A stretch of 64,000 nt of DNA from a virus (IMGVR_UViG_3300027754_005987:32001-96000), one strand, 5' to 3'; shown: positions 1,811 through 32,252, counted from the stretch's first letter. Numbers and translations: made by a program. Notes: generated by a model from the letters alone, not told the origin.

Positions 1811-3196
1811 TTATCTAGATTCAAATCTAAATAAAGCTATTGTTACATATGTTCCATCTTGTTTTTGGAATGTATGATGTTTAAGTTGAACTTGTCCTTT
1901 TTTAAATTGATTAAGACCTTTTTTTTTCATATATCTTCCAGCAGCATCAGCAAAAGCTGCGTCCCAAGAAAAACCATGGTTTTGTGATTGACCAATACCG
2001 TATTGAACATCATCTTTTTTAGATTCTTCTTCAAACTCATTTTTTATATCATCAAATGAATAATTTCTACTACCAATATTTTTTAATTCAGTTTTATCTT
2101 TTATATTTGATGCAGTTTGTTTTAAATCATCTTTAAATTGAGCTAGTTTCTCACCTGCCCCAGTTTTAAGTTGAGCTAATGTCTCACCTGCTCCAGTTTT
2201 AAGTTGACTTATTTTATCTTTAAATTTATCTTGAGCAATTGCATCTTTACCGCCAAATAAACTACTAGCAGCTAAACCAACACCAGCAGCGATATTAGCA
2301 AATTTACCTTCACCAATATTTTCTAATTCTTCTCTTAAAAGTTTTTTAACTAATATTCTAGACTCATTTGTTTTATTTTTTTTGCTCCAGTATTTTTCAG
2401 CAGCTTTTTCCATCTTATCTAATCTATCATAATAATCTGGAAATTCAGAAACATGGTCCATAGCAATTTCATTCTGTTTTTCCTCATCACTAGTATGTTC
2501 TGATTCAATTTTTTCACCTTTTTTTATTTGTGATTTTAAATCTTTAACAGGTACATCAAATTTTTTAGCAATATCTTTTATGGTTAACTTATCAGATTTA
2601 CCACCTTTTAATTTGTTCTCGTTAAGTGTTTTAGTTTTCATAAATTCTTCAAATCCTTTTTTATCGTTATCGCTGTTTAGTATATAAAACTTACTTCCGT
2701 TTTTAGCAACTAGTTCATCAGAAGCACCAGTTTTTTTAACGTATAAATAATCATATTTATTAAACACTTGTTCATCATTATATTTGTTTATTTCGTGTTG
2801 TCTTGGCGCTACTCTATCTTCTTTAGGTATATCTGAATGGTTATATTCATTAACCGCTAAATAATAATCATATTTATCATCAAAAACTTTAACATTTGAA
2901 AAGTCTAATAAAACAACATAAACTTTTCCTTTTTTATCTTCTGCATATTTTTTAGAATAATCAAAGTTTTTGGTCAAATAAACACCAGCACCTAATTTGA
3001 AAATACTGTTTGGGTTAAATTGTTCAAATTCTTCTTTACCTATTTCATCACCTCTATAAAAAAAAGATGGATTCTTATAGTTTAACTTTTCTTTTATTAA
3101 AAATCTTATGTAATTAATATAATCATCAATTGTCCCAATATCTTCAAAAGTAAAATTACTGTAGACACCACCAAAATCTATTAAATTGTTTTCCAT
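1811..3196 (-). CDS. Modular protein: ART-like domain, DUF5661-like module, internal signal-peptide-like segment and C-terminal domain
   Basis: FYRG...GAGVYLT...YA (ADP-ribosyltransferase-like); KGGKSDK...EHT...IAMDH.E.PDYY module; hydrophobic GKFANIAAGVGLAASSLFGG..AIAQ; modules separated by LNE/LRE/IGE. Confidence 0.6.
   Translation of the reverse strand: MENNLIDFGGVYSNFTFEDIGTIDDYINYIRFLIKEKLNYKNPSFFYRGDEIGKEEFEQFNPNSIFKLGAGVYLTKNFDYSKKYAEDKKGKVYVVLLDFSNVKVFDDKYDYYLAVNEYNHSDIPKEDRVAPRQHEINKYNDEQVFNKYDYLYVKKTGASDELVAKNGSKFYILNSDNDKKGFEEFMKTKTLNENKLKGGKSDKLTIKDIAKKFDVPVKDLKSQIKKGEKIESEHTSDEEKQNEIAMDHVSEFPDYYDRLDKMEKAAEKYWSKKNKTNESRILVKKLLREELENIGEGKFANIAAGVGLAASSLFGGKDAIAQDKFKDKISQLKTGAGETLAQLKTGAGEKLAQFKDDLKQTASNIKDKTELKNIGSRNYSFDDIKNEFEEESKKDDVQYGIGQSQNHGFSWDAAFADAAGRYMKKKGLNQFKKGQVQLKHHTFQKQDGTYVTIALFRFESR
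2138..2207 (-). repeat. 33-bp tandem duplication in coding sequence (QLKTGAGE[T/K]LA x2)
   Basis: ttgagctagtttctcacctgccccagttttaag followed by ttgagctaatgtctcacctgctccagttttaag. Confidence 0.9.
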
Positions 3197-3202
3197 TATT
3201 TA

Positions 3203-4057
3203 TTATACTTTTTTACGTAATTTAACTGACCATTCAACAGTTTTTATTATTGGTGCTAAAATCTGACTTATTAAATTTATTATATCAATGGCGGTAAACA
3301 CACCGCCAATAGCGATATCAACACCTATGTCTGTAAACCAAGATAATATTGGTTTAATATCTAACGATGATACTAGGTTTTTTAACTCTTTAAAACTATT
3401 TAAAATATCAGAAACGCTACCAATTATATTTGTGTTTTTGGATATAAAGTCAACACCTTTTTCCATCATGTTTCTTATAAATGTTTTTTCTAAATAAACC
3501 AACAATGTGGTAAAGGCTAATATCATAAGAAAACCAGCCCATCCAGTATTTGATGATAAGTTTTTAGAAACATTCTCAACATGTTCAATAAGTTTTGAAA
3601 ATTTATCATTAAAACCATCTGAACTAACTTTTAGTTTATCTAATATTTTATTGGTGGCATCTTTTATGGTTGCCATTGTTTTTGATAAACTTTTTTTAAT
3701 AGATTCTATTGCCACTTTCATTAATTCTGAGTCCACTAATATATCCTTAAAGAATTTTGCAATATCCTTTAAACTTTTAATACTATTAACAACTTCTATC
3801 GCTTTTTCTTTAGTTTTATCGTAAGCAACGCCAATATAATTATTTATAGAACCTAATATAGATTCTATTATTATTTGTTCTTCAATAATTTGTTTCCTTA
3901 TTGATAAAGAATAATTTTCATTTATCGGTAAATCAACACCTAAAGTGTATTTAATATAATGAGGGTTATTTATTAAGATAATAGATTCTTCTGATAACAG
4001 TTTTCTTCTATCATTTAACGCTAACTCTTCTTTTAATAATGCTTTAATAGTATTCAT
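3203..4057 (-). CDS. Hypothetical protein with IKALLKE leader and two hydrophobic helices
   Basis: 284-aa ORF; hydrophobic segments WAGFLMILAFTTLLVYL and IAIGGVFTAIDIINLISQILAPII. Confidence 0.75.
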   Translation of the reverse strand: MNTIKALLKEELALNDRRKLLSEESIILINNPHYIKYTLGVDLPINENYSLSIRKQIIEEQIIIESILGSINNYIGVAYDKTKEKAIEVVNSIKSLKDIAKFFKDILVDSELMKVAIESIKKSLSKTMATIKDATNKILDKLKVSSDGFNDKFSKLIEHVENVSKNLSSNTGWAGFLMILAFTTLLVYLEKTFIRNMMEKGVDFISKNTNIIGSVSDILNSFKELKNLVSSLDIKPILSWFTDIGVDIAIGGVFTAIDIINLISQILAPIIKTVEWSVKLRKKV

Positions 4058-4059
4058 AC

Positions 4060-4497
4060 TTAATCGTATATTGAAGGGTTTAATTTACCATATTTTCTTA
4101 TTATAATACCAGCAATTGCATTGGCTTCATTTTCAAATATACTACCATCTGCACCTGGGTCTAATTCATTTTCAAATCTACCATCAAGATTTTGTTTATG
4201 ATGAACTAGTTCGTGAGCTATTGACCTGCATACATCTACGATGGCTCTATTTTTAACATATACCTTTAAACGTTTTTCATTGTTCATATAATAAGCAGTT
4301 GTTTTAAGGTCTGGCGTTCTTTCAAAAGCTAATTCAACTTTTATATCGTCATCAATATTTAAATATTCTTTTGCAAAATTAACAAAATCAGCAACTTCTC
4401 TAATATCCATATCTCCTTTGGTTAAAAGTCTTTCTCTTAACAATTGTTTAATTTTAGTTTTATTTTCTTTTAACGTATTTTTAATTTTTGGTTTCAT
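4060..4497 (-). CDS. Zn metallopeptidase-like protein (HExxH with downstream E) with IKQLLRE leader
   Basis: RSIAHELVHHKQ and ENEANA motifs. Confidence 0.75.
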   Translation of the reverse strand: MKPKIKNTLKENKTKIKQLLRERLLTKGDMDIREVADFVNFAKEYLNIDDDIKVELAFERTPDLKTTAYYMNNEKRLKVYVKNRAIVDVCRSIAHELVHHKQNLDGRFENELDPGADGSIFENEANAIAGIIIRKYGKLNPSIYD

Positions 4498-4501
4498 ATC
4501 T

Positions 4502-4509
4502 TATAAATA
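4502..4509 (-). promoter_or_regulatory. Putative late promoter TATTTATA
   Basis: Motif 4 nt upstream of ATG 4497; recurs before structural genes. Confidence 0.55.
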
Positions 4510-4510
4510 T

Positions 4511-4539
4511 AAAAAAAGCCACAAAAAAATGTGGCTTTT
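4511..4539 (-). terminator. Intrinsic terminator after clpC
   Basis: aaaagccaca-loop-tgtggctttt stem with U-tract on the minus strand. Confidence 0.8.
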
Positions 4540-4547: not shown

Positions 4548-7500
4548 TTATTTACCTTTAGGTGTTTTAATTGATTTTATCATTATCTCTTGTTTATCTT
4601 TATCGAGACCAATACTTATCGTTTCACCTTCTTTTATATTATCATTAAGGATTTCATCAGCCACTGGGTCTTCAACATAATGTTGAATCGCTCTAGCTAA
4701 TGGCCTTGCGCCATATGCTTCATCATATCCTTGTGTTGCTAAAAACTCAATAGCTTCTTTGGATATTTTAAGTTTAAAACCCATTTCATTTACTCTTTTT
4801 TCTAAATGACCAAGTTCAACGTAAATGATTTTATGTATATCCTCTATGGTTAATCCATTGAATACAATCGCTTCGTCAATACGGTTAAGGAATTCTGGTT
4901 TGAATTTTTTCTTAAGCGCTTTTTCAATAATTGCACGAGCTTTGTTTTCTTCATTAACAATACTAGAAGCTGTTTCAAAACCCATATTTTTACCAAACGA
5001 ATTAACTTCTTTAACACCAATGTTAGATGTTAATATAATAAGTGCGTTTTTAAAATTAATTTTACGACCTAACCCATCAGTTAACATACCTTCATCTAAT
5101 AATTGTAATAAGATATTAAACACATCTTCATGTGCTTTTTCAATCTCATCGAACAATATAACACAATGTGGTTTTCTACGAACTTTTTCAGTTAATTGAC
5201 CACCTTGGTCATAACCCACATATCCAGGAGGTGGACCAATTAATCTAGATACTGAATGTTTTTCCATATATTCAGACATATCCATTCTAATAAGCGATTC
5301 AGAATCTCCAAAAACATGCTCAGCTAATAATTTAGCCAAAAGTGTTTTACCAACACCAGTAGGACCTAAAAATATAAATGAACCAACAGGTTTGTTTTTA
5401 TCTTTGATACCAATACGGTTACGTTTTATAGCTTTAACAACTTTAGATACAGCATTATCTTGACCAATAACTTTACCAGTCAATTCTTTATCCAAATTCA
5501 TTAATTTTTTACTTTCTTGTGTTGATATTTTTGTTAGTGGTATACCAGTCATCATGGATACAACTTCAGAAATTAATTCAACACCAACAATAGTAATTTT
5601 TTTATCTAATTTAGATTGCCATTCAGCCATTGCTGTTGTTAACTCATCAATTATTTTTTTCTCTTCATCTCTAAGCTTTGCTGCTTCTTCATATTTTTGT
5701 TTAACAACAACTTCTTTTTTCTTTTCGTTTATCTCTAATTTTTTAGCTTCAAGTTCTTTTATATTTTCTGGTTTTTCAACACTAACATTTGTTGTTGCGC
5801 CAGCTTCATCTAACACATCAATAGCTTTATCTGGCATACTTCTATCCATAATGTATCTAGCAGAAAGCTTAACACATTCTTCAATGGCTTCGTCAGTATA
5901 TTTAACCCTATGATGATTTTCGTATTTTTCTTTGATGTTGAATAGTATAATTTTTGTTTCATCTAAAGTTGGTTCTTCAACAAGGACTTGTTGAAAACGT
6001 CTGGTTAACGCACCATCTTTTTCAATGTTTTCTCTATACTCATCAAGCGTTGTTGCGCCAATAACTTGTAATTCACCACGAGCCAATGCTGGTTTGAATA
6101 TATTAGACGCATCTAATGAACCAGATGCGTTTCCTGCACCAACTATTGTGTGTAACTCATCAATGAATAATACAATATCTGGATTGGCTTTACATTCTTC
6201 TAACACGGCTTTCATTCTTTCTTCAAATTGTCCACGATATTTTGTGCCAGCGACAATTGATGCTAAATCTAGAGTAAATATTCTCTTTCCGATAAGTGTC
6301 CTAGGTGCATTTCCATCTTTTATTAATTGAGCTAATCCTTCAACAATTGATGTGTTATGCGTTACAATATAATTATCAGTAATATATAAATGATTATCAT
6401 CGTCAATCATTATACACTTAGCCTCTTTTTTACCAATTAACTCTATTTTAACAATATTATTTTTAAGTGTTTTAGAATATTGGTAATTACTTGGTGCTTT
6501 TTCTTTTTTTCTATCTAATAAGAATAAGTTTTTTGGTGAGTGATATCTAATAGATAAAATATAGGATACTTGACCTAATTTTTTAACACCTTTATATGTG
6601 TAAGAGGGTTGTTTATCACTTATACTTGCAACACCACCAATTGACCAAATTAATTCTTGCATATCTTTAATTAACTTATAGCTAACGCTAGAATATTGTA
6701 ATGTACCAGTTTTGGTAACAGTTCCATCAGAATCCATTAACCCTTGTATTAGAGATATTTTTTGAGTTAACGAACCGTTTTTATATTTTTCTGGGATAAA
6801 TTTATTATTTGATTTTGTTTCAGTTAAGTGTAATAAATCAGTCTCTTCCAACAATGGGTGGATTCTATCATTTTTGTAATACCTAGTTCTTTTTTTAATT
6901 AATTTATCTTCAGATATATTAATTCTAAACGTGTTTGTTTTTATGCCACCACCATTTACAGTTAACTTATAATCTGACCCAATTATTTCCTCAACATTTT
7001 CAGCTATTTCAATATCATCGGTAGTAAGTGAAAGTTCATATTTACCAAAATGACCATCACCTAATAATAATCCCATTAAATAAGGGTCGATAACATAATC
7101 TAAATTTTCATTTTTAATTATGTTTTCAGACACCAAAGGTAATTTTAGTCTATAAGTAGTATTTTCAATTTTATCTTTAATATCAAGCGTGTTAAGAATA
7201 GACCAACCTTTTTTTCTTGATTTACCTTCTGGTATACCATAAACTTTCCATAAATGTTCACCACAAGCTTCAGTGCTTCTACCATCTTTAAAACTAATTC
7301 TATAAATATCTTTTTCACCTTGTGGGTATACGCCAATTACTTTAGTTGTTTTACCTTCTGGTGTTAATACTTCATCACCAATATTTATTTCACCCATAGT
7401 TGTCCAACCATTAGGTGTTAGTATTTTAGCGTCAAGTGGTTGTGCTTTACCAACGCCAGGCTCACCGATAAGTATTGGATTATTTTTCTTTCTACGAGAA

Positions 7501-8141
7501 AGTATTTGAGAAACTCGTTTTATTTCAGCGCTTCTCCCAACAACTGGGTCAATTTCACCTTTTTCAACAGCTTTAGACACATCTCTACAAAAATTATCAA
7601 GAACTGGTGTTTTGCTCTTCAAATCAGTTTGTTTAGATTTTCTTTTGTATGTTTCTTCATCACTAGGTTCATCGCTGTCATAAGCGCTTTTATTGTTTTC
7701 TTTCATAATATTAATTTGTTTTTTAAAACCGTTATAATTAATCCCCAATTCATTTAATAATTCAGTTGTTATTGATTTTGTTAATAAAACAGCTAACATA
7801 ATATGAAAAGTATCTATCATATTATCATTTAATTTTTCACATTCTTTATCTAAAGCTTTAAAAATTGATTTGGTTTCATCTGAAAATGGTAGGTTTTTCC
7901 TGACACTATTTGTTAACCTAGGTGTCAAATCATTTTTCCTTAAAGCATCTGATAGTTTATCATATAACTCAGTTGTATCTATGTTAAGTAACCTTAACAC
8001 TTTAACACATTCATTATCATCATCTACAAGTATTGATAATATGATATGTTCTGGCCTTACTTTTACGTCATCGAAAGATTTAGCTTCCTTCATCGCGTGG
8101 TTAATAATCAGTTTAACCTTTGGGTAAATCTCTCTATTCAT
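4548..8141 (-). CDS. clpC: ClpC-type AAA+ chaperone/protease ATPase containing an intein
   Basis: Clp-N repeats, Walker A GEPGVGK|T, LFIDELH, UVR-like KYEEAAKLRD, second NBD GPTGVGKT, GPPPGYVGY, YGARPL; 833 aa after intein removal. Confidence 0.95.
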   Translation of the reverse strand: MNREIYPKVKLIINHAMKEAKSFDDVKVRPEHIILSILVDDDNECVKVLRLLNIDTTELYDKLSDALRKNDLTPRLTNSVRKNLPFSDETKSIFKALDKECEKLNDNMIDTFHIMLAVLLTKSITTELLNELGINYNGFKKQINIMKENNKSAYDSDEPSDEETYKRKSKQTDLKSKTPVLDNFCRDVSKAVEKGEIDPVVGRSAEIKRVSQILSRRKKNNPILIGEPGVGKAQPLDAKILTPNGWTTMGEINIGDEVLTPEGKTTKVIGVYPQGEKDIYRISFKDGRSTEACGEHLWKVYGIPEGKSRKKGWSILNTLDIKDKIENTTYRLKLPLVSENIIKNENLDYVIDPYLMGLLLGDGHFGKYELSLTTDDIEIAENVEEIIGSDYKLTVNGGGIKTNTFRINISEDKLIKKRTRYYKNDRIHPLLEETDLLHLTETKSNNKFIPEKYKNGSLTQKISLIQGLMDSDGTVTKTGTLQYSSVSYKLIKDMQELIWSIGGVASISDKQPSYTYKGVKKLGQVSYILSIRYHSPKNLFLLDRKKEKAPSNYQYSKTLKNNIVKIELIGKKEAKCIMIDDDNHLYITDNYIVTHNTSIVEGLAQLIKDGNAPRTLIGKRIFTLDLASIVAGTKYRGQFEERMKAVLEECKANPDIVLFIDELHTIVGAGNASGSLDASNIFKPALARGELQVIGATTLDEYRENIEKDGALTRRFQQVLVEEPTLDETKIILFNIKEKYENHHRVKYTDEAIEECVKLSARYIMDRSMPDKAIDVLDEAGATTNVSVEKPENIKELEAKKLEINEKKKEVVVKQKYEEAAKLRDEEKKIIDELTTAMAEWQSKLDKKITIVGVELISEVVSMMTGIPLTKISTQESKKLMNLDKELTGKVIGQDNAVSKVVKAIKRNRIGIKDKNKPVGSFIFLGPTGVGKTLLAKLLAEHVFGDSESLIRMDMSEYMEKHSVSRLIGPPPGYVGYDQGGQLTEKVRRKPHCVILFDEIEKAHEDVFNILLQLLDEGMLTDGLGRKINFKNALIILTSNIGVKEVNSFGKNMGFETASSIVNEENKARAIIEKALKKKFKPEFLNRIDEAIVFNGLTIEDIHKIIYVELGHLEKRVNEMGFKLKISKEAIEFLATQGYDEAYGARPLARAIQHYVEDPVADEILNDNIKEGETISIGLDKDKQEIMIKSIKTPKGK
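6354..7445 (-). mobile_element. Intein (364 aa, Ala-start, class-3-like) with LAGLIDADG homing endonuclease in ClpC Walker A
   Basis: Begins AQPLDAKILTP, ends YIVTHN with Thr+1; LLLGDG and GLMDSDG motifs; W/C/T residues in HLWKV, AKCIMID, IVTHN. Confidence 0.9.
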
Positions 8142-8163
8142 AGTTTATCTATTTTTATTTGCG

Positions 8164-8227
8164 CAAATATATGTATTATTTTTTATTAAATCAAGCTTGA
8201 TTCGTAAGATAAATATTCGTATGTTTG
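8164..8227. promoter_or_regulatory. Divergent pair of Bacteroidota-type promoters sharing a palindromic -33 region
   Basis: Minus: TTG(8194-8192)-N20-TATATTTG(8171-8164). Plus: TTG(8197-8199)-N20-TATGTTTG(8220-8227). Palindrome aatcaagcttgatt at 8189-8202. Confidence 0.8.
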
Positions 8228-8240
8228 TATAAAATTAAAT

Positions 8241-8480
8241 ATGAATATAAATAAAACATCAACATTTGGCAAGGTAGAAATACTATTAAAAGATGCAACT
8301 AACACTGCCACAATACCTTCCGTAACAAAGATTGAATTTTATGATTGTGGACTTATGATTACTGGAGATTATATAGTTGTAGTTATAGATGAAAAAGATA
8401 ACATTAATAACGCATTAACAAGCACAGGTAGAATATTCAACTTAAAAGATATTTCAGCATACAAAACGCATATCAAATAA
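8241..8480 (+). CDS. Hypothetical protein
   Basis: 79-aa ORF directly after a promoter. Confidence 0.7.
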   Translation: MNINKTSTFGKVEILLKDATNTATIPSVTKIEFYDCGLMITGDYIVVVIDEKDNINNALTSTGRIFNLKDISAYKTHIK

Positions 8481-8505
8481 TTAATAACAATTAATACAAA
8501 AACAA

Positions 8506-8955
8506 ATGATTCTAAAAAGACAAGAAAAAGAAAATGTAGTAAAAGCACTGTATGATTCGTCAAACATAATTGCTTCAGTTTGGGATAAAGAAAAAAATGA
8601 ACTAATGCTCATCTTTAATAAAGGAACAAGATATAAATACCCAAATGTTTCTTCTACTGATTATCTTAGATTTGAAACGGCTGATAGTCAAGGTAAAGTT
8701 TTTAACACACACATTAAAAATTACACATCCGAAAAGATAGATAATGTTGACCCTAATGAATTAATCAAAGAAGTGCATAATTTAAAAGAACAAGAAGAAA
8801 AAGAAACCCTTAAAGCTAAATCTGATTTATTAATTAGTAAAGTAAAAGGACTTATAACATCATATGAAAATTCTAATGGTGTGTTAAATATTAATCAATT
8901 AAATGAATTAAAAGAATCAATAACAACATATATTAACGAAACATCAAATAACTAA
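8506..8955 (+). CDS. KTSC-domain protein
   Basis: SSNI...WD....LMLIFNKG.RYKYPNV.......F..ADSQGKVFNTHIK matches the KTSC pattern. Confidence 0.8.
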   Translation: MILKRQEKENVVKALYDSSNIIASVWDKEKNELMLIFNKGTRYKYPNVSSTDYLRFETADSQGKVFNTHIKNYTSEKIDNVDPNELIKEVHNLKEQEEKETLKAKSDLLISKVKGLITSYENSNGVLNINQLNELKESITTYINETSNN

Positions 8956-8959
8956 AAAA

Positions 8960-9529
8960 ATGGCTAAATACAATATTAGAATTAGTGGTTATGGTTCAGA
9001 AGTTACAATCGGTCATGTAACACCTGAAATTAAAAAACAAATAGAAGAATTATATGATGAAGATGAAACTATAACATCAATATTTGTTAATAATGATTAT
9101 TTTGGTTATTCTTGGTCTGAATTTGACGATTTTTTTCATAATTTTAACGCAAATGAAAAATTTAACCTAACAATTTATCAAGATGATGAAACAATATACG
9201 AATTAACTTCAGATGATTTAAGAACAAAAGATGAATATGAAGGAGTTATAACACATAAAGAATTTGCTGATGAATATGATATAACTAGAATAAACGATGA
9301 TTTAGCAGTATATTGTGTTACTGGTGAAAAAGGAGGACTATTTTATAATGAAATAGAAACTGATGATTTTGATATTAAAAAATTAAACATTGTAATGTTA
9401 TATGATGTTGGTAATGATTTTTATAACCATGGTGAAATGGTTTATCAAATATTTTATGATGATGAATTATTATATAACGAAGGTGGTGATACTGATGGTA
9501 AATCATTTGATATTTATATGAACTTATAG
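8960..9529 (+). CDS. Acidic hypothetical phage protein
   Basis: 189-aa ORF within the operon; GYGSE N-terminus, TDGKS C-terminus. Confidence 0.75.
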   Translation: MAKYNIRISGYGSEVTIGHVTPEIKKQIEELYDEDETITSIFVNNDYFGYSWSEFDDFFHNFNANEKFNLTIYQDDETIYELTSDDLRTKDEYEGVITHKEFADEYDITRINDDLAVYCVTGEKGGLFYNEIETDDFDIKKLNIVMLYDVGNDFYNHGEMVYQIFYDDELLYNEGGDTDGKSFDIYMNL

Positions 9530-9531
9530 TT

Positions 9532-9783
9532 ATGGTAAAAAGAGAATTAACAATTTTAGTATTATCAATATTTTCACTTATATTGGTTTCAGTTTTTGGT
9601 ATTTCAAGAATATTAAATAATAAACCAATACAAAAAGGTTCAATAGAAATAAGTCTTGTAGATAGCTTAAATAATGAAATATTATATTTACAAATAGAAA
9701 ATGGTAGGTATCAAATAATAATGGATAGATTGTATGAATTAGATTCTAACCTAGTTAATAAAGCAACCGAAAATTTAGAATAA
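9532..9783 (+). CDS. Small protein with N-terminal membrane anchor
   Basis: LTILVLSIFSLILVSVFGI followed by a coiled-coil-like segment. Confidence 0.65.
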   Translation: MVKRELTILVLSIFSLILVSVFGISRILNNKPIQKGSIEISLVDSLNNEILYLQIENGRYQIIMDRLYELDSNLVNKATENLE

Positions 9784-9789
9784 TATAAT

Positions 9790-10041
9790 ATGTATACATT
9801 AATTAGAAAAAAAGATAATTTAAAAAAACAAGCTGAAAATATTATTTGGATTGAATTCGATGGTGATGGTAGGTTTAAAGAAAAATACGATGAACCTGCC
9901 ATTAATAGAAGTTTATTAATGAGCCCATTCAATGATTTTTTTACATGGCAAACAACAATTATTATTGAAATAATTGATAAAAAAGAAAACCATATACATT
10001 TTAAAACAAAAAATAGTGAATATATTTTAACGAAAGAATAA
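9790..10041 (+). CDS. Hypothetical phage protein
   Basis: 83-aa ORF tightly packed before thyA; FTWQTT...FKTKNSEY. Confidence 0.7.
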
Positions 10042-10043: not shown

Positions 10044-12362
10044 ATGAATAAATTAGATAAAGCGTATACAGACCTAATTCAAGATATACTTGATAACGGA
10101 GTTAAAAAAGAAACAAGAAATGGGGGAACCATAAGCGTATTTGGAAGACAGATTAAACATTCAATGAAAAACGGATTTCCATTGCTCACCACAAAGAAGA
10201 TGGCGTTTAAGACAATGGTTACCGAATTGTTATGGTTTTTAAGGGGCGATACAAATATTAAATTCCTTGTTGATAATAATTGTCATATTTGGGATGGAGA
10301 TGCTTATAAACGATTCTTAAATGAAACTATTAAAATTGAACCTGTGGAAGTAAAGGAACGAGCAATTACTCAATTATTGAATAATAAAGAATCAAAAGAA
10401 GAATTTATCAACAAAATCAAAACAGATGATGAGTTTGCTGAGAAGTGGGGTGATTTAGGTCCTGTATACGGCAAGCAATGGAGAAATTGGGAACATAATA
10501 CTGGACCTTCTTGGGGAAAGGGAGGAACCTATATAGAATCAAAGAAAACTCAAATAGACCAAATTGCAAACCTAATCCGTGACCTTAAAAACAATCCTGA
10601 TTCAAGGAGACTAATGGTTAATGCTTGGAATGTCGCGGATGTTGAAAGCGGTAGTATGGTCTTGCCACCTTGTTTTACTTCAGATATGTTGGTTGCGTGT
10701 ATAGATGGATATAGAAAAATATCTGAAATAACTACTAATGATTTGGTATTAACCGAAGATGGGTCTTATCAAAAAGTTTATGAATTACATGAAACTAATT
10801 ATAATGGTGATTTATTAAAAATTAAAACACATGGTAATAGTAAATCAATTAACGCAACACCTAACCACCCATTTTTGGTTAGAGATAAAGGGTATATTAA
10901 CGCTAGTGAAATTACGAAAAACGATTATTTAGGTATACCAATTAATAAAAATGAAATTATACCATCATTTAAAACGATAATAAAAGATAACCAATATTCT
11001 GAAAAAGAAATTGAAACTGTTTTAGATGATAAAGATTATTGGTATCTTATGGGGTATTTTTTAGGTGATGGGTGGTTAATAGAATCAAAAAGAGAAATTT
11101 ATTTTGCTATTAATGATATCCAAGTTGATGAAATACTACCTAGATTAAATAAAATTATTGGGTTAGCAAAATTGAATAACTCTGGTGTAAACTGTAAAAA
11201 ATATGTTGGTAGAAAACAACAATTATTTGAAATATTATCAATGTTCGGTAAGTATGCAGATGGTAAAATAATACCACAATTTATACATGACGCACCTAAA
11301 CATTTAATTGAAGAATTTATTAAAGGGTATCAAAAAGCTGATGGTTGTATAACTAATGATGGTATAACTTATACCACTGTATCTGATAATATAGCATATG
11401 GGTTACAATTATTATATACCAAATTAAACATAAAAGCGTCAGTATATTATCAAAAAAGACCTAATAAAACATTTATAGAAGGTCGTGAAGTTAATCAAAA
11501 AAATACTTACTCAATCAATGTTTACCAACAAAAAAATAAATCTAAAAATTATATTTTTGATAATGATTATTTGTGGTTATGCGTTAAGAGTATTGAAAAA
11601 TATAATTATGATGGGTATGTGTATAATATTTCAACTGAGAATAACCATACTTACAACGTTTTTAATTTAGTTAACCATAATTGTCATTATGGATTTCAAG
11701 TTTATACAAGAGAGTTGAGTCAAGAAGAAAGAAAACAAATATTTGAAGATAGCGGATACGTTTGTGATGTATGGCCATTTAATGGTGACTGGCATGGTGA
11801 ATATGATGGATTTGGAATACCACGCAGAGCAATCTCTTTAATGTGGAATCAACGTAGCGTAGATACTTTTCTCGGTTTGCCATTCAACATAGCATCTTAT
11901 GGGTTGTTATTGGAAATCATTGCTAAAGCAGTTAATATGGTTCCTGATGAATTGATTGGTAACTTGGGTGATACTCATTTATATTCAAACCATATTGAAC
12001 AAGCTAAAGAACAAATTGGTAGAGAATTAAGAACTGATGAAAGAGTTTGTAAGGCATATGAAAATAATAAATTAGATACATCTTTATTTAAAGAAGGTCT
12101 TAGCGATGCTGAATTAGAAACTATTTGCGATTCATTTGGTATTCCTAAAAGAACGAGAGAACCTTATGAATTACCTAAACTAAACATTAATACAGAGTTT
12201 TGGTCGACAGAAGGTGGTTCATGTGGCGAAGGCCCTTTAGATGCTATTAAAGTATTCGAATCATTTAAAGATGACAACTTTTGTAAATGTTTACTAGAAG
12301 AAGATATTCAATTAAACAATTATCAATCACACCCAACAATTAAAGCACCATTAAGTAATTAA
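10044..12362 (+). CDS. thyA: Thymidylate synthase ThyA containing an intein
   Basis: [36 protein letters not shown]|[27 protein letters not shown]; 435 aa spliced. Confidence 0.97.
10671..11681 (+). mobile_element. Intein (337 aa) with LAGLIDADG endonuclease at the ThyA catalytic Cys
   Basis: Starts CFTSDMLV, block B ATPNHPF, YFLGDG and GYQKADG motifs, ends LVNHN with Cys+1. Confidence 0.93.
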
Positions 12363-16239: not shown

Positions 16240-16649
16240 TGAAAGACCTTTTTTTAATATATGTTAATATGGTTGGTAAAGATTACAAAGGTAATCTTAT
16301 ATATGAATTTATATTTTCAGACACAACCAAAAATATAGATGGTAATGAGTGGGATACATTCCCTGCTTCTGGGAGACCAGAAGCTCCTCATGACCATTTT
16401 ATTAAAAAGGTTGGTAGATTAGAATCTGAACTTAATTTGGATGTTGTTCAAAATAGCGATACATTTGCTGTTTGGGATGCTGTTGATGGGGTTATAGCTT
16501 TAGCATGGGAAAATATAAATGCTTATGATTCTTATCCAGAAAAAAGACTTTGTTTTAAATTTGGTGAACCAATAAAAGAAGTTGAAGCCAAATTATATGA
16601 GAATGACATAATATTGAATTACAATACGAAACAAAATGAAAAAATCTAA
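16239..16649 (+). CDS. Hypothetical protein
   Basis: 136-aa ORF, coupled by TAATG overlap; DAVDGVIALAWE. Confidence 0.8.
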   Translation: MKDLFLIYVNMVGKDYKGNLIYEFIFSDTTKNIDGNEWDTFPASGRPEAPHDHFIKKVGRLESELNLDVVQNSDTFAVWDAVDGVIALAWENINAYDSYPEKRLCFKFGEPIKEVEAKLYENDIILNYNTKQNEKI

Positions 16650-25844: not shown

Positions 25845-26567
25845 ATGCATAATTATAACGAATTAAAAGTATTGAAACGTCATGAAACAGGGACTGGTGT
25901 TTTAATCGAACATGATGCTGGATTTATTAGTCCTGATGAACCTAGGAATCAACCTTTTATCAATGAGATAAAAAAATTAGATACAGGTAGCAAAATGACT
26001 ATTGTTGAACCGCTTATTGTATACGTTGTATTACAGAAGTATGGTATCCTTAACCGTAATGGTAGGGTTTATCCAGAAAGCATATTAAAACAACAAGATA
26101 GGTTATATCAACAAGCAATCAAAGAAAGAAGAGCCGTAGGTGAATTAGACCATCCAGAATCTAGTGTTATTGCTGGTGATAGAATATCACACAATATAGT
26201 TGAGACATGGTGGGAAGGTCATACACTTATGGGCAAAATGGAGATACTAATGACACCTGGATATATTAATTATGGTATTGTATCAACAAAAGGAGATGAA
26301 GTCGCTAATCTATTAAGAAACAGAATTAAAATAGGTGTATCATCTAGAGGTGTTGGTTCGCTTAAAGAAGGTAAAAATGGTGAACAAATAGTACAAGACG
26401 ATTTTGAGATAATATGTTGGGATGTTGTAACAGCACCTTCAACACCAGATGCATGGATTGGTAGGAGTTCTGAAGAAATTAGACCGTATGTAGAAAACGT
26501 ACAAAAGAAAAAACCATTAATTGAAGGTGGGTTAAATGATAAATTAGATAAATTTTTATTAGATTAA
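25845..26567 (+). CDS. gp21: Prohead core protein protease (T4 gp21-like)
   Basis: NRNGRVYP, GELDHP, ISH, GVSSRGVGS, WDVVTAPSTPDA; start moved to ATG 25845, downstream of the terminator and of TATTTATT (25820-25827). Confidence 0.93.
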   Translation: MHNYNELKVLKRHETGTGVLIEHDAGFISPDEPRNQPFINEIKKLDTGSKMTIVEPLIVYVVLQKYGILNRNGRVYPESILKQQDRLYQQAIKERRAVGELDHPESSVIAGDRISHNIVETWWEGHTLMGKMEILMTPGYINYGIVSTKGDEVANLLRNRIKIGVSSRGVGSLKEGKNGEQIVQDDFEIICWDVVTAPSTPDAWIGRSSEEIRPYVENVQKKKPLIEGGLNDKLDKFLLD

Positions 26568-26699: not shown

Positions 26700-27929
26700 A
26701 TGGCTGAAAAAAAATCAATACTTGAAGAAGCGTTATTGGATATTAAAAACATTCAATCTGCTTTAAATGCCAACACAAAAGAAATACTTCGTAGCGTTGC
26801 TAAAGAAGAAATTGATAGTGTGGTGAAAGAATCGCTTATGAAAAATGAAGCTGATTATGAAGAAGAGGATTTGGAATCAACTGATGATGCTGTAGAATTA
26901 GGCGGTGACGCTGATATCAATACAATGGAATTAGGTGACGAAGAATCTGACGATGCAGAATTAGATGATATCGAAGGCTCCGAAGAAGTGGCTCCAGAAA
27001 TGGATTCAAAAATTGGAATGGACTCAGATGAGTTAGGTGGAGTGTATGATATGACTAAAGGAGCATCAGATGATGAAGTTTTCGCAATTTACAAAAAATT
27101 AAGCGGTGAAGACGAAATCGAAATTGTTGGTGATGAAATTCACTTAAACATTACCGAACCAGGAGAGTACATTGTTAAAAAAGGTGCTTTGGGTGATTCA
27201 ATGGAAGCTGAAGAAGAACTTGATTTAGAAGATTCTGAAGAAGAATCTGAAGAAGAGGGAGAAGCTGAAGAAGAAATGAATTACGAAATTGAAATGGGTA
27301 ATGAAGAAGAAGCTGAAGAAGAAGAAGCTGAAGAGGAAGAAGCTGAAGAAGAAGAATCTGAAGAAGAGGAAGAAGAGGAGTTAGAAGAGAATTTAGGCGC
27401 TACTAGAGGTCATGCTGGTAGACAAGGTGCTAAAAGGTCTGGTTCTGCTCATATTCCAAAACCTAAAAAAGCTTTGGAAGAATCACAAAAAGCTAGACAA
27501 ATTGTTTCTGAAACAACCAAAAAATATAATACATTATTAACTGAAGCTAAAAAATTACAGACTGAGAATGAAGAATTCAGAAAAGCTCTTAAAACTTTTA
27601 GAAATCAGTTAGTAGAAACAGTAGTATTCAATAGTAATCTTACTTATGTAACTAGATTATTCATGGAACATTCAACAACTAAAGCTGAAAAACAAAACAT
27701 TATTAAACGTTTTGATGTTGAAGTATCAAATTTAGTTGAATCAAAAAAACTTTACAAAACTATTGCTAACGAATTGGAATCTAGAAAACCAATTGCTGAG
27801 TCTGTAAATAACAAAATAATTAAAGAAGCGGCTACTAGTACTTCAAAACAATTAAACGAAAGTACTGCGTATGTTGACCCATCTACTAAAAGAATCTTAG
27901 ATTTAATTAACAGAGTAGAGAAAAAATAA
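26700..27929 (+). CDS. Prohead scaffolding/core protein
   Basis: Lies between protease and capsid gene; very acidic centre, coiled-coil C-terminus, many LxE sites. Confidence 0.8.
   Translation: MAEKKSILEEALLDIKNIQSALNANTKEILRSVAKEEIDSVVKESLMKNEADYEEEDLESTDDAVELGGDADINTMELGDEESDDAELDDIEGSEEVAPEMDSKIGMDSDELGGVYDMTKGASDDEVFAIYKKLSGEDEIEIVGDEIHLNITEPGEYIVKKGALGDSMEAEEELDLEDSEEESEEEGEAEEEMNYEIEMGNEEEAEEEEAEEEEAEEEESEEEEEEELEENLGATRGHAGRQGAKRSGSAHIPKPKKALEESQKARQIVSETTKKYNTLLTEAKKLQTENEEFRKALKTFRNQLVETVVFNSNLTYVTRLFMEHSTTKAEKQNIIKRFDVEVSNLVESKKLYKTIANELESRKPIAESVNNKIIKEAATSTSKQLNESTAYVDPSTKRILDLINRVEKK
27205..27390 (+). repeat. Glu-rich low-complexity coding repeats (GAAGAAGAAGCT-like)
   Basis: Encodes EEEAEEEEAEEEEAEEEESEEEEEEE. 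Confidence 0.85.
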
Positions 27930-27987: not shown

Positions 27988-29826
27988 ATGTCACATTTAT
28001 TAACATCTGGACAAGTTGGAAATATTGGTTTAAACCATATGAAAGCTATCCGTAAAGAAACACAATCTAAATGGGATTCTTTAGGCTTCTTAGAAGGTCT
28101 TAGAGGTCACGTAAAAGAAAACATCGCTCAATTATATGAAAACCAAGCGTCTACATTATTAAGCGAGTCTACAACAGCTACTAACTCTGGTTCTTTTGAA
28201 ACAGTTGTTTTCCCTATCGTAAGACGTGTTTTCTCTAAATTATTAGCTAACGACATCGTGTCTGTACAAGCTATGAACATGCCAATTGGTAAATTATTCT
28301 TTTTCGTACCACAAACTTCTAGCCGTGTTGACGGTGCTGGTGTTGCTGGTAGTGATTATACCTCTACAGCATCTTCTGATGTTTATGGTACTACTTACTC
28401 TGCACACACTTCATTTGCATCTAACGGAATTCCTTCATGTGTATTGCCAGCTGCTGGAACATGTGTTGTAACACCTTTCGAAGCTAAAAACTTGTACGAT
28501 ATTTTCTACAATGATGGTTTATTTGATAACTCTAAAGGTACTTTAACTATCCGTACTCACGCTAGCTTACCTAAATTAACTTTTAATTCTAATGGTGATT
28601 TTAGTAACCCTGTAGTTGGTACTGGTACTTTGCCTACTGCTACTGATGGTTCATTAAGAGAAATCATCGTTAACGTTTCTGGTTTTTCACCAAACAACAC
28701 AAACAAACAAGTAATGACAGGTGCTGATGGTAACCAAATGGATACTGAATCTTTCTTAGCTTCTTTACAAATTGTTACTACTGCTAACATTTTAGACAGA
28801 GACGCTAACGTAGTTGTTGCTTCAAACAAATCTGTACCTTTTAGAGTTGTTACTCAAAAATATGGTAGAGGAATTGTTGATTATAATTCTATAACTGATG
28901 CTACAGGTACTATTTATTTAGCTTTAGACTTGACTCACCCAGTTGGAACAACTGCTACTGGTACTGCTGCTGCTGGTACTGCTACTTATGATGGTTATGT
29001 TGGTGCTTCTGCTACAACTGCATCTGCATTTACTTTTAACGCTGCATGGGCTGAATATGCTACATTAGAGCTTGAAACCGAAATGGGAGAAGTATCTTTC
29101 AAATTAGACGAAGTTGTTGTTGCTGTTGAAGAAAGAAAATTAAGAGCTACTTGGTCTCCAGAGCTTGCTCAAGACGTTAGTGCTTTCCACAACATCGATG
29201 CTGAAGCTGAATTAACAGCTATGTTATCTGAACAAGTTGCTGCTGAGATTGACCGTGAAATCCTTAGAGATTTGCGTAAAGCTGCTGCATGGCAATTGAG
29301 ATGGGATTACAATGGTTGGAGAAAAGCTTCTACCGCTGCAAGTCCATATACTCAAAAAGAATGGAATCAAACTTTGATTACTCGTGTTAATCAAGTATCT
29401 GCTCAAATACATAAATCTACTCTTAGAGGTGGTGCTAACTTTATCGTTGTATCTTCTGAAATCTCTGCTATTTTTGATGATTTAGAATATTTCCACGTAA
29501 GTGATGCTAACCCAGAGCAAGACCAATACAACATGGGTATTGAAAGAATTGGAACTTTAAGTGGTCGTTACCAAGTGTATCGTGACCCTTATGCACCAGC
29601 TTACTCAGTAGTTATTGGACATAAAGGAAAATCATTATTGGATACTGGTTATATCTACGCACCATACGTGCCGTTACAATTAACCCCAACAATGTACAAT
29701 CCATTTAACTTTGCTCCAGTTAAAGGTATCATGACACGTTACGCTAAAAAAGTTGTGAACAATAGGTTCTATGGCCATGTAAGAGTGGACGGTGTACCTA
29801 CATTCAATGTTAACGAATTACGTTAA
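27988..29826 (+). CDS. gp23: Major capsid protein (T4 gp23-like)
   Basis: PIVRRVF, VSVQAM, RKLRATWSPELAQD, AEAEL..MLSEQVAAEIDREI, YAPYVPL, GIMTRY. Confidence 0.96.
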   Translation: MSHLLTSGQVGNIGLNHMKAIRKETQSKWDSLGFLEGLRGHVKENIAQLYENQASTLLSESTTATNSGSFETVVFPIVRRVFSKLLANDIVSVQAMNMPIGKLFFFVPQTSSRVDGAGVAGSDYTSTASSDVYGTTYSAHTSFASNGIPSCVLPAAGTCVVTPFEAKNLYDIFYNDGLFDNSKGTLTIRTHASLPKLTFNSNGDFSNPVVGTGTLPTATDGSLREIIVNVSGFSPNNTNKQVMTGADGNQMDTESFLASLQIVTTANILDRDANVVVASNKSVPFRVVTQKYGRGIVDYNSITDATGTIYLALDLTHPVGTTATGTAAAGTATYDGYVGASATTASAFTFNAAWAEYATLELETEMGEVSFKLDEVVVAVEERKLRATWSPELAQDVSAFHNIDAEAELTAMLSEQVAAEIDREILRDLRKAAAWQLRWDYNGWRKASTAASPYTQKEWNQTLITRVNQVSAQIHKSTLRGGANFIVVSSEISAIFDDLEYFHVSDANPEQDQYNMGIERIGTLSGRYQVYRDPYAPAYSVVIGHKGKSLLDTGYIYAPYVPLQLTPTMYNPFNFAPVKGIMTRYAKKVVNNRFYGHVRVDGVPTFNVNELR

Positions 29827-29847: not shown

Positions 29848-29876
29848 AAAGGTGGATAATATTATCCACCTTTTTT
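29848..29876 (+). terminator. Intrinsic terminator after the capsid gene
   Basis: aaaggtggataa-ta-ttatccacctttttt. Confidence 0.9.
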
Positions 29877-29887
29877 GTTTTAAATAC

Positions 29888-29918
29888 TTGACTTTATTAA
29901 CGATTATTAGTATATTTG
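29888..29918 (+). promoter_or_regulatory. Bacteroidota-type promoter
   Basis: TTG-N20-TATATTTG ending 4 nt before ATG 29923. Confidence 0.75.
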
Positions 29919-29922
29919 TATT

Positions 29923-30612
29923 ATGAGTAGGAAAATAGAATTAACCCAAGAACAATTAGCTGAGTGTCTTAAAATGTATAATGAAGAATTACTTGGTTCA
30001 ACTACCATTAGTGAAAAGATGGGAATACATAAAACAATAATTATTAGAACACTTAAAGAAAATGGTGTTGAATTGGGACCGTCTGGACGAAGAAATATTG
30101 GTGGTAAATCAGTTGCACAAAAAAAATATGAATTAAAACCAGAAGTAAAAGCTAAACGAAGTGAATACCATAAAGATTGGTCAGCTGATAATCGTGAAAC
30201 CTTACGAAAGTATCATGGAACTTGGAGAGAAGATAATAAAGAACATGTAAATAAATATAAGCGTGATTATGAACGTAAAAGACGTGCTGAGGACCCAAAG
30301 TATAGATTAGGTGTTAGAACTCGCACAGCGGTATGGCAATTACTTAAAGAGCGTAACATCAACAAGACCAATAAAACATTTGAATTACTTGGATATACAT
30401 TGGAAGAGCTAATGGTTCATTTAGAGAAACAATTCACCGAAGGTATGACATGGGATAATTATGGTGAATGGCATGTTGACCATAAGATACCGATGGCCAG
30501 TTTTAATTTCGAAACAACAGATGATAGAGAATTTAAACTATGTTGGTGTTTGGCTAATCTTCAGCCTCTGTGGGGACCAGATAATTTAATCAAGGGAACA
30601 AAACTTTTATGA
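29923..30612 (+). CDS. Free-standing HNH homing endonuclease with N-terminal HTH-like region
   Basis: MTWDNYGEWHVDHKIP...NLQPLW..DNLIKG. Confidence 0.85.
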   Translation: MSRKIELTQEQLAECLKMYNEELLGSTTISEKMGIHKTIIIRTLKENGVELGPSGRRNIGGKSVAQKKYELKPEVKAKRSEYHKDWSADNRETLRKYHGTWREDNKEHVNKYKRDYERKRRAEDPKYRLGVRTRTAVWQLLKERNINKTNKTFELLGYTLEELMVHLEKQFTEGMTWDNYGEWHVDHKIPMASFNFETTDDREFKLCWCLANLQPLWGPDNLIKGTKLL

Positions 30613-30632
30613 GTTCTGGGATATTTATTAGT

Positions 30633-31181
30633 ATGAAAGAGTTTATTAAAAAGTTATTAAGGGAAGGTTTAATTGATGATTTTGATTTTGAAGTTGAGAA
30701 TCATGGTAAAGTTATTCATAGTGAAATTAAAGTTAAAGATATTGAATTATCGTTATATAGGGGACTTAGAAATCAATTTGATAATACTAAAGCACATCCA
30801 GAGTTAGTTCCATATGGTAATGATTATATGTTAGTTGCTTCAAAATTTCCCGATAAATTGATATGGTTTACTAACGATATTGAATTTGCAAAAAAATATG
30901 ATGGTTATGCGTTAATAATATATAAGTTACCAGTTAAAAAACATGAAAAAATAGTGACTTATGAAGATGGTTATACAACAACAGATTATATAGATAATAA
31001 TGATATTATGATTTCTGGGTATGGTAATACACAGATAAAACAAGACCCTTATAATAATAATAGTTTTTATGCTGGTATTGAATTACCAGAGCATTGGTAT
31101 TGGTCTTATAAAGTAGAAAAGCATATTGTTTGTGATAAGGATTTAATCATACCATGGAAAAACATTAAGTATAATGATTAA
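30633..31181 (+). CDS. ART-like protein with MKEFIKKLLRE leader
   Basis: LYRGL...IWFTNDIEFAKKY pattern; start moved to ATG 30633, just after TATTTATT (30622-30629). Confidence 0.6.
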   Translation: MKEFIKKLLREGLIDDFDFEVENHGKVIHSEIKVKDIELSLYRGLRNQFDNTKAHPELVPYGNDYMLVASKFPDKLIWFTNDIEFAKKYDGYALIIYKLPVKKHEKIVTYEDGYTTTDYIDNNDIMISGYGNTQIKQDPYNNNSFYAGIELPEHWYWSYKVEKHIVCDKDLIIPWKNIKYND

Positions 31182-31669
31182 AGCATTTTATTCCACCAAG
31201 GTAGTTCATTAAATTCTTTTAATGTTTCATCAAGATAAGAAATATCTAACACCCATTTATAATGTGAACGCTTAAAATAAAGACTAAAAACATCAGTTAG
31301 ATAATCTTGAACTTCTTTTTCATTCATCCCATTAACTTTAATTAATTGTTTAATTACAATATCAATTTCACCTTTTATTTTTGCAAGGCCTGGATGTTTT
31401 ACTTTATGACAATATGGACATAATGAAATTAAACCAGTTAATTTTTGTCTATAATTTTTATCATCATATTCCCATATTTCATGGCATTCAACATCGTGGT
31501 TAAACCCTTGATTTTTACCAGTATCACCACATATTTCACATTTATTGCCAGCAGATTCATAAGATTTATTTCTTAAATAATCCCATTCTTTTTCTGACAC
31601 ATTGCTTCTAACGTTATTATACCAGCTAGTACTAGGAACTATCTCTGATGTTAATTTATATTGTGACAT
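31178..31669 (-). CDS. HNH endonuclease family protein
   Basis: CEICG...CHEIWEY...LCPYCHKVKH. Confidence 0.8.
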   Translation of the reverse strand: MSQYKLTSEIVPSTSWYNNVRSNVSEKEWDYLRNKSYESAGNKCEICGDTGKNQGFNHDVECHEIWEYDDKNYRQKLTGLISLCPYCHKVKHPGLAKIKGEIDIVIKQLIKVNGMNEKEVQDYLTDVFSLYFKRSHYKWVLDISYLDETLKEFNELPWWNKML

Positions 31670-31671
31670 AA

Positions 31672-31848
31672 TTAATATCCGTTATTATGCGAATCGTCAA
31701 AATTTAAGTTTTCTTTAAAATTTTCCATTATCTTAGGTAACCCATTAAAATAAGCTCTAATTTTTTTACCTAATTCGTTATCATTTGGGGTTTCCAATAC
31801 TATTTTTTTAATATCTAATAGAGTGGCTTCTAATAATTCTTGATACAT
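31672..31848 (-). CDS. 58-aa small protein not in the ORF track
   Basis: Reads MYQELLEATLLDIKKIVLETPNDNELGKKIRAYF...NGY*; follows a promoter and ends 2 nt before the next ATG. Confidence 0.7.
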   Translation of the reverse strand: MYQELLEATLLDIKKIVLETPNDNELGKKIRAYFNGLPKIMENFKENLNFDDSHNNGY

Positions 31849-31865
31849 AACAATAAGTTTTTTTA

Positions 31866-31895
31866 CAAATATACATAAAAAAACCTAAGATTCAA
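31866..31895 (-). promoter_or_regulatory. Bacteroidota-type promoter overlapping a terminator hairpin
   Basis: TTG(31895-31893)-N19-TATATTTG(31873-31866). Confidence 0.7.
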
Positions 31896-31905
31896 GTCTT
31901 AGGTT
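31877..31905 (-). terminator. Intrinsic terminator of the minus-strand structural operon
   Basis: aacctaaga-ttcaag-tcttaggtt with U-tract on the minus strand. Confidence 0.75.
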
Positions 31906-31913
31906 ATATTTTT

Positions 31914-32252
31914 TTATTGAAATTCTGGTCCTTGTTCACAAATTGTTGATTGTATTTGCGTCCAATAAGTATCGGCTTCATCTGGCATACTATCACCAGA
32001 CATATAACCTGTTTTTACTTGACCGTCAATTTTAATTTGTTCTTGTTTAAGATTTTCCAAAGGCGCATGTATTTTTTGCATAATTCTAGTTCTAGTTGCT
32101 TCATCAATACCTTTCATAGCTTCCTCAACATAATGCAATGCTTCCGAATAAGAATTAATAGTCATTTTGTTACAAATAGTTTGAGTAGCTTTATTCATAT
32201 TCTGACCATCAATCATTTGTTCTCTAAGTTTTTCCCTAATAAAGTTTTTCAT
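31914..32252 (-). CDS. Hypothetical protein with MKNFIREKLRE leader
   Basis: 112-aa ORF. Confidence 0.75.
   Translation of the reverse strand: MKNFIREKLREQMIDGQNMNKATQTICNKMTINSYSEALHYVEEAMKGIDEATRTRIMQKIHAPLENLKQEQIKIDGQVKTGYMSGDSMPDEADTYWTQIQSTICEQGPEFQ

Follow-up and report, generated by a model that had tools for sequence, protein, structure and literature searches.

An 11-residue leader shared by unrelated proteins of an uncultured jumbo T4-like phage is a candidate capsid-targeting sequence

In the virus contig IMGVR_UViG_3300027754_005987, at least 11 unrelated proteins carry one and the same short leader, with the 11-residue consensus M-K-x-(F/L)-I-K-x-L-L-R-E (hereafter the leader, or tag). 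We analysed a window of 64,000 nucleotides (nt), corresponding to bases 32001-96000 of this 109,204-bp contig; positions are those of the window unless "contig" is stated. The contig has a G+C content of 25-33% and a CheckV completeness of 32%, which implies a genome of ~340 kb, and the nearest cultured phages are distant, the capsid protein of Flavobacterium phage immuto being 38% identical. The head genes stand in T4 order: terminase, portal (21786-23831), four small open reading frames (ORFs), an S77 prohead protease, an acidic scaffold-like gene and a Gp23-family capsid gene. The leaders and the tagged proteins, with bit scores from a leader hidden Markov model (HMM), lie as follows.

30633..30665 (+): leader MKEFIKKLLRE, best leader-HMM match of the genome, 25.4 bits
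30633..31181 (+): tagged protein (predicted cargo), 182 amino acids (aa), weakly ADP-ribosyltransferase (ART)-like predicted fold, AlphaFold2 predicted local distance difference test (pLDDT) 84.6
4432..4497 (-): tandem leaders of the zincin cargo, 7.4 and 13.1 bits
4060..4497 (-): tagged protein (predicted cargo), 145 aa, predicted minimal zincin (HELVHH) metallohydrolase fold, AlphaFold2 pLDDT 82.3
4028-4057 (-): leader MNTIKALLKE of 3203-4057, 6.6 bits
3203..4057 (-): tagged protein (predicted cargo), 284 aa, two hydrophobic segments read from the sequence (aa ~171-188 and 243-270)
32220-32252 (-): leader MKNFIREKLRE of 31914-32252, 8.5 bits
31914..32252 (-): tagged protein (predicted cargo), 112 aa, leader MKNFIREKLRE, orthologues with more canonical leaders in L018, L048 and L050
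2330..2356 (-): internal leader-like ILVKKLLRE, aa 281-289 of 1811-3196, second half of the leader only, 6.3 bits
1811..3196 (-): multi-part protein with ART-PolyVal-like N-terminus, DUF5661, internal KKLLRE and a C-terminal part with a hydrophobic segment
contig 12848-14959: tagged protein, 703 aa, 78 kDa, C-terminal half of ~14 tandem DUF4116 repeats, largest predicted cargo
contig 8459-9340: tagged protein, weak DUF3990 match

A sequence-only reading of this stretch had named similar leaders on four ORFs and an internal copy in a fifth. All five sites are present, and the leader of 4060-4497 is in fact double (MKPKIKNTLKE at aa 1-11 and NKTKIKQLLRE at aa 12-22); MKEFIKKLLRE begins at an internal ATG, 30633, of an ORF that opens at 30609. 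Leaders are 10-11 aa long, each closed by L-[RK]-E with an invariant Glu, and the residue after this Glu (P1') is G, N, S or A in 30 of 38 distinct leaders. The earlier claim had been staked on the leader being more frequent at N-termini than in shuffled sequence, and so it proved. Counting the pattern [ILVFM][KR]xxL[KR]E where it ends within the first 25 residues of the 125 called ORFs of the 109-kb contig, we observed 12 matches, compared with 0.12 in whole-protein shuffles or 0.23 in shuffles of the N-terminal 25 residues (shuffle maxima 2 and 5), and only 4 internal matches in 31,321 positions. An HMM trained solely on 30 leaders from other contigs likewise gave 12 matches in this genome, at 6.3-25.4 bits and with 10 of them at residue 1, the next match scoring at most 3.1 bits. 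Seven of the tagged ORFs lie upstream of the window, at contig 7875, 8459, 9353, 12848, 16255, 16456 and 26148, the last being weaker. A degenerate leader was also seen at L002, where a 378-aa ORF (14476-15612; contig 30476-31612) stands behind a ATATTTATA motif and starts with MRKFIKETLRANLLSE; this start scores 3.0 bits and has Ala in place of Glu11, with an L-S-E site five residues further on.

The bodies behind the leaders are mutually unrelated, as had been proposed: BLASTP aligns only their first 13-16 residues, with the sole exception of 30633-31181 and its paralogue at contig 9353-9892 (25% identity over the whole length), and their differing folds rule out one paralogous family. Most tagged genes are single-domain and the predicted cargo, mostly enzymes, ranges from 6 to 78 kDa. 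For 4060-4497, the label of HExxH metallopeptidase given by the sequence-only reading was borne out by the model, which places an HExxH helix and a downstream ligand on a zincin alpha/beta fold, so that the protein is classed as a zincin with predicted catalysis. Its top Foldseek matches are minigluzincins and IrrE (E 1.5e-3), aa 27-141 superpose with Z 9.4-8.0 on YbeY-like proteins, the ERAP1 catalytic domain, SPRTN, selecase and Wss1, and both HELVHH and ENEAN are invariant across 29 homologues. A second tagged HExxH protein (HHELVHW), unrelated in sequence to 4060-4497 and without a family match, is encoded at contig 16456-17442.

The ART label given to 30633-31181 fared less well. In the model a helix (aa 2-10) and a disordered linker (aa 11-26) precede a beta-rich domain, for which an exhaustive structure comparison returned ADP-ribosyltransferase-fold chains at nearly all of the top 50 places, but at Z of 5.1 or less; Foldseek against the PDB and Pfam gave no match. 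Orthologues keep LYRG, WFT and GIELP motifs, and Arg43 and Glu150 are conserved. "ART-like" is a reasonable but weak description of this predicted fold. The two hydrophobic segments of 3203-4057 agree with the membrane-helix label that it had received; its only family match is sub-threshold, to phiKZ_IP (E 0.004), and an Atlas search returned viral hypothetical proteins only. The multi-domain 1811-3196 (ART-like, DUF5661 and C-terminal part) matches ART-PolyVal (PF18760) at 24.9 bits (E 3.7e-5), which misses the Pfam cut-off of 31.2, and DUF5661 at E 4.3e-12; L029 encodes the DUF5661 module as an ORF of its own. Its ILVKKLLRE is a candidate inter-domain protease site. Pfam, PHROG and Atlas gave no lead for 31914-32252, most of the cargo has no significant Pfam or PHROGs family, and a word-based homologue search with contig 7875-8462 returned the protein itself only. 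A protein identical to the latter is on record on a 242.5-kb contig and relatives reach 248-368 kb, which suggests that a far more complete genome of the same phage or a close relative exists in public assemblies.

To place the leader among relatives, we located these in IMG/VR by a degenerate DNA pattern of the leader, which found 29 loci with a G+C content of 26-35%; the match is an ORF start in 28 of them. In 596 Gb of prokaryote genomes the same pattern has two matches only, both out of frame inside cellular genes, and the reversed pattern has none in ten related contigs; by these searches the tag is virus-specific. The tagged proteins of this genome and its relatives (n=47) fall into 32 body clusters, and the Pfam families among them are ART-PolyVal, PolyA_pol/CCA-type nucleotidyltransferase, AAA_33 kinase with CPD, GNAT, NUDIX, GP88 and DUF3990. 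ART-PolyVal is found in five tagged proteins of relatives at E of 0.001 or better (best E 1.7e-12).

Within single families the leader is kept as what adjoins it changes. The form MKxxIK[KQ][LI]LRE occurs in 12 of 13 orthologues of 30633-31181, which were collected by whole-protein similarity and in which the next ~15 residues vary and contain indels, and the leader is conserved in at least 108 of 116 zincin orthologues, again ahead of a varying linker. There are more than 590 zincin homologues; among the best 120, the leader is at residue 1 in 68, 19 have short N-terminal extensions that resemble start-codon miscalls, a GNAT domain is fused to the zincin in 15, where the leader lies internally and follows a second L-N-E site, and in 11 a first leader is succeeded by an inserted zinc ribbon. 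One protein 97% identical to 4060-4497 (P0018) holds a CxxC...CxxC zinc ribbon between both leaders; 4060-4497 is hence a ribbon-deleted form, which accounts for its double leader. This ribbon module of ~45 aa travels with the leader, standing between two leaders ahead of the zincin, ahead of DUF5661, and on other bodies (carriers P0018, P0109 and P0072; L007 1158-1724, L021 1919-3031 and L029 5634-6089).

In the models of 30633-31181 and 4060-4497 the leader is a helix followed by a low-confidence linker. At conserved leader residues the codons vary (Ile5 as ATT, ATA or ATC; Arg10 as AGA, AGG, CGT or CGA; Glu11 as GAA or GAG), which argues for selection on the peptide and not on the DNA. We conclude from these sequence comparisons that the leader is a detachable element. 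It is also facultative, since L009 and L027 have a tagged and G001 and G002 an untagged CCA-type transferase.

The head module and the upstream motifs comprise the following features.

25845..26567 (+): prohead protease, T4 gp21 type (S77), PF03420 E 1.7e-24, start codon set by alignment with relatives
26700..27929 (+): probable scaffold (gp22 position), between the protease and capsid genes like T4 gene 22
27988..29826 (+): major capsid protein, Gp23 family, PF07068 E 4.1e-73
30622..30628 (+): TATTTAT motif, 5-11 nt upstream of ATG 30633, read from the sequence
4503..4509 (-): TATTTAT motif, 6-12 nt upstream of the three-gene tagged operon

The gp21-like protease that the sequence-only reading had reported is indeed encoded. 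It is 30% identical to T4 gp21 (E 3e-22), and its His103 and Ser166 align with both positions that are replaced by Ala in the 5JBL chain relative to wild-type gp21; with the catalytic His and Ser conserved, the enzyme is apparently active. In 8 of 10 large related contigs no S77 protease was detected, an absence that is uninformative because these contigs are fragments, 10-70% complete. The scaffold-like protein is very acidic, has a conserved N-terminus with an ILE-E site and is kept in relatives; a Pfam search with it gave no match. In the capsid protein, aa 58-61 form a conserved L-[ST]-E followed by S, G or A, in a position that resembles the propeptide cut of T4 gp23. Proteins of the head region, at 12839-16239 (+) and 26700-27929 (+), are extremely acidic and of low complexity, with long D/E runs. 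Thymidylate synthase (10044-12362, +) and the large terminase (19046-21493, +) hold putative inteins, so read because of long insertions flanked by Cys and His-Asn-Cys; in G003 (L034/L035) the match to the prohead protease is broken up inside an open frame of 628 aa, suggestive of a further intein.

The linkage of the tag to the head genes was assessed on 80 loci retrieved by the protease alone and hence independent of the leader. As the same clade we took loci whose capsid proteins are 71-81% identical, counting those in which the sequence runs on for 2 kb or more past the capsid gene. Of 15 such loci, 12 have, on the capsid strand and with a start no more than 3 kb behind the capsid gene, an ORF that scores 13.7-31.7 bits with the leader HMM, and in 6 of these 12 it is the very next gene, 75-101 nt past the capsid stop codon. 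By contrast, a tagged gene is absent from all 12 loci that belong to distant T4-like clades (capsid 39-45% identical), the best score being 2.7 bits. As far as these loci tell, the tag is restricted to the clade with this head module in common. The 17 slot genes form 14 body clusters, and variable tagged bodies behind the capsid gene point to a hypervariable cargo slot between the capsid gene and the conserved structural-region gene of 468 aa at 32254-33660. Two endonuclease-like genes lie in this slot in the window as well: 29923-30612 (+), without a Pfam match, and 31178-31669 (-), with a weak HNH match (E 0.004). The former resembles an insertion, since in five relatives a tagged gene directly follows the capsid gene.

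All leader sites had been said to lie downstream of TATTTAT. The motif stands directly upstream of the genes starting at 4497 and 30633, whereas the other three are reached only through an operon or a preceding gene: 3203-4057 and 1811-3196 are downstream in the operon headed by 4060-4497, and 31914-32252 comes 2 nt after the gene at 32254-33660, which has the motif 44 nt upstream. An upstream motif of the ATATTTATA type is common to the tagged operons and to the terminase, scaffold and tail genes. This late-type motif, shared with structural genes, and the position in or beside the head module would fit late expression of the tagged genes together with the head genes.

A gene for a ClpC-type double-AAA+ unfoldase (4548-8141, -; Clp_N, AAA, AAA_lid_9, AAA_2 and ClpB_D2-small), split by a LAGLIDADG intein, is followed directly and on the same strand by tagged genes, as is the ClpC-type gene of L029 (260-3344). 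The unfoldase has an MGF loop where ClpC proteins bind ClpP; ClpP was sought in the contig and not found. A functional link between the unfoldase and the tagged proteins is possible.

The closest known counterpart of the leader is the capsid-targeting sequence (CTS) of phage T4. There, gp21 cuts after L/I-x-E (PMC9026906), the first 10 residues of IPIII suffice for packaging, with residues 4 and 7 mattering for targeting and 8 and 10 for processing, and Alt is a packaged ART that is cut at ITE-6 and LTE-619 (PMC9026906, PMC3012670, PMC5694885). T-even internal proteins are diverse and have the CTS alone in common (PMC3012670, PMC9026906). In the T4 reference NC_000866, IPII and IPIII start with MKTYQEFIAE, cut before Ala, and the 19-residue propeptide of IPI ends in ITE before Ala. 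Like these T4 peptides of 10-19 residues, the leader is N-terminal, starts with MK, has spaced hydrophobics, ends in L/I-x-E and is followed by a small residue; the T4 plan appears here as MK, hydrophobics at 4, 5, 8 and 9, Leu at P3, Glu at P1 and a small P1'. In both cases a gp21-family protease and a Gp23-family capsid protein are encoded in the same genome; an ART is among the T4 cargo and a weakly ART-like protein among the predicted cargo here, and the genes, late in T4, are putatively late here. The differences lie in the consensus (MKxFIKxLLRE as opposed to MKTYQEFIAE), in the number of tagged genes (no fewer than 11 in one third of the genome, compared with 4-5 in T4), in the predicted cargo, which here consists mostly of acidic enzymes of 6-78 kDa instead of small basic proteins, and in the tandem and internal copies of the tag. 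T-even internal-protein genes likewise combine a conserved leader with interchangeable bodies at a fixed genomic slot; here, however, the slot is behind the capsid gene, the clade is another one (uncultured, ~340 kb) and the bodies include recognisable enzyme folds.

Two other systems invite comparison. Polyvalent proteins of phages and conjugative elements, which unite at least two disparate effector domains in one polypeptide, have been predicted to enter the host by injection, with ART-PolyVal, GNAT and zincin among their types (Iyer et al. 2017, PMC5512222). They share with the tagged set ART-PolyVal, GNAT, a zincin-type peptidase and nucleotidyltransferases, a predicted delivery with the DNA and, in the GNAT-zincin fusions of some relatives and in 1811-3196, a multi-domain make-up. 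Unlike in polyvalent proteins, most domains here are encoded as individual genes that bear a tag apiece, and the head-protease motif marks the joints, where polyvalent proteins rely on a peptidase of their own. The ejection proteins of phiKZ, 201phi2-1 and SPN3US also belong to jumbo phages with many packaged proteins, from which an N-terminal propeptide is cut C-terminal to Glu by a gp21-related protease; their propeptides, in contrast, are long (often >100 residues) and have no short tag in common, cleavage is at S/A-x-E and the capsids are of another lineage. In the literature that was searched, neither this leader nor an expanded CTS set was described for marine or jumbo T4-like phages. 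The principle is already textbook for T-even phages, in which diverse internal proteins with a common CTS are known; the novelty lies in the consensus and the clade, in how many proteins bear the tag and in their enzymatic character, in the fixed location of the slot behind the capsid gene, and in the use of tandem or internal tags.

We consider it probable that the leader is a clade-specific capsid-targeting sequence, a variant of the T4 CTS and internal-protein system with a larger and mostly enzymatic cargo. The sequence-only reading had proposed a portable address tag for interchangeable cargo, and its descriptive part stands: the tag is non-random, N-terminal, L/I-x-E-ending, borne by different folds, linked to head genes and confined to one clade. 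The addressing itself, that is core binding, cleavage, packaging and injection, is inferred. The amphipathic N-terminal helix would bind the scaffolding core of the assembling prohead, so that the attached protein, whichever it is, would be enclosed by its leader. During head maturation, the gp21-type serine protease would cut after L-R-E (P3 Leu, P1 Glu, small P1'), and the freed cargo would remain in the head and exit with the DNA at infection. Internal copies of the tag, in 1811-3196 and the GNAT-zincin fusions, would be polyprotein joints. The predicted cargo consists here of ART-like, zincin, DUF4116-repeat and membrane-helix proteins and in relatives of ART-PolyVal, GNAT, CCA-type nucleotidyltransferase, P-loop kinase/CPD and Nudix proteins.

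Several observations weigh against this reading. A tagged gene after the capsid gene is lacking in 3 of the 15 same-clade loci, and 1811-3196 has an internal half-leader only. The motif L/I-x-E is short and common in K/E/L-rich proteins. The predicted mature cargo is mostly acidic (isoelectric point 4.7-6.6), whereas T4 internal proteins are basic. Moreover, the CCA-type nucleotidyltransferase and the kinase/CPD that are tagged in relatives have no precedent as packaged proteins, and the contigs with such RNA-repair-type cargo, all of them fragments, are not tied to a head module. A complex prediction for the protease with residues 1-40 of a tagged protein scored 0.00 and counts neither way.

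Other explanations of the leader were weighed against capsid targeting. The leader may be a removable pro-peptide, a zymogen lock that keeps potentially self-toxic enzymes (ARTs, peptidases) inactive and has no part in capsid addressing. Its ending in a protease motif with an invariant P1 Glu, the potential toxicity of several of the cargo enzymes and the resemblance of the inter-domain copies to polyprotein joints would all suit a lock. Yet the 11 conserved residues of amphipathic pattern far exceed what a gp21-type protease needs, for which L/I-x-E suffices; in the two models 15-25 flexible residues separate the leader from the folded domain, so that a block of the active site is unlikely; and the sole such protease encoded is the prohead protease, which acts inside proheads. 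We therefore regard a lock as unlikely, and find it slightly harder still to favour a leader that addresses some other machine or place, such as the ClpC-type unfoldase encoded next to three tagged genes (as a degron or handover tag), the membrane or a non-capsid assembly site. The amphipathic and basic character of the tag and the position of tagged genes directly after the ClpC-like gene, here and in L029, speak for such an address, but this adjacency is seen in two genomes only and the 109-kb contig yielded no ClpP. It is to the capsid gene that the tag is linked most strongly and most often, the tag is confined to the clade with the common head module, and the terminal L-R-E fits the head protease. 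A Sec or lipoprotein signal peptide was rejected, the leader being charged, amphipathic and without a hydrophobic core.

The remaining two explanations deny the peptide a function. The 5' coding segment might be mainly a DNA-level recombination handle or a translation-start cassette that is copied with promoters, as would be allowed by the likeness of the first ~35 coding nucleotides in several genes at the DNA level and by the recombination hot spot that the slot behind the capsid gene forms, with its homing-endonuclease-like genes. Against it, synonymous codons are varied at conserved residues, which rules out a purely DNA-level cassette, and the peptide is retained where the leader has become internal after fusion; a handle and a targeting peptide are, besides, not mutually exclusive. 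A cassette with a functionless peptide appears very improbable to us. Chance likeness is negligible: the genome has a G+C content of 27-30% and encodes proteins in which K, L, I and E abound, but the shuffles described above, with 12 matches where 0.12-0.23 are expected and maxima of 2 and 5, refute composition as the source, and the reversed DNA pattern has 0 matches in ten contigs.

If the leader is indeed a capsid-targeting sequence, the tag would be a sequence-only marker of injected effectors in unculturable phages. Injected proteins of uncultured phages normally cannot be recognised, and a validated tag would name them from sequence: at least 11 proteins in one third of this genome, and many more body families in relatives. 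Such a tag, together with its protease, would also make a second, orthogonal pair for packaging foreign proteins into phage capsids, and it would show that the CTS principle of T4 scales to large enzymatic cargo. Proteins co-injected with the DNA act before phage gene expression, which makes them prime candidates for host take-over and anti-defence functions. More tentatively, and with somewhat less than even confidence, we suggest that the jumbo T4-like phages of this clade preload a changeable arsenal of enzymes, comprising ARTs, zincins, acetyltransferases and, in relatives, Nudix, CCA-adding and tRNA/RNA-end repair enzymes, for co-injection by means of a lineage-specific peptide code, in which gain or loss of the tag on orthologues, as the tagged and untagged CCA-type transferases indicate, may switch a protein between being delivered with the DNA and being made after infection.

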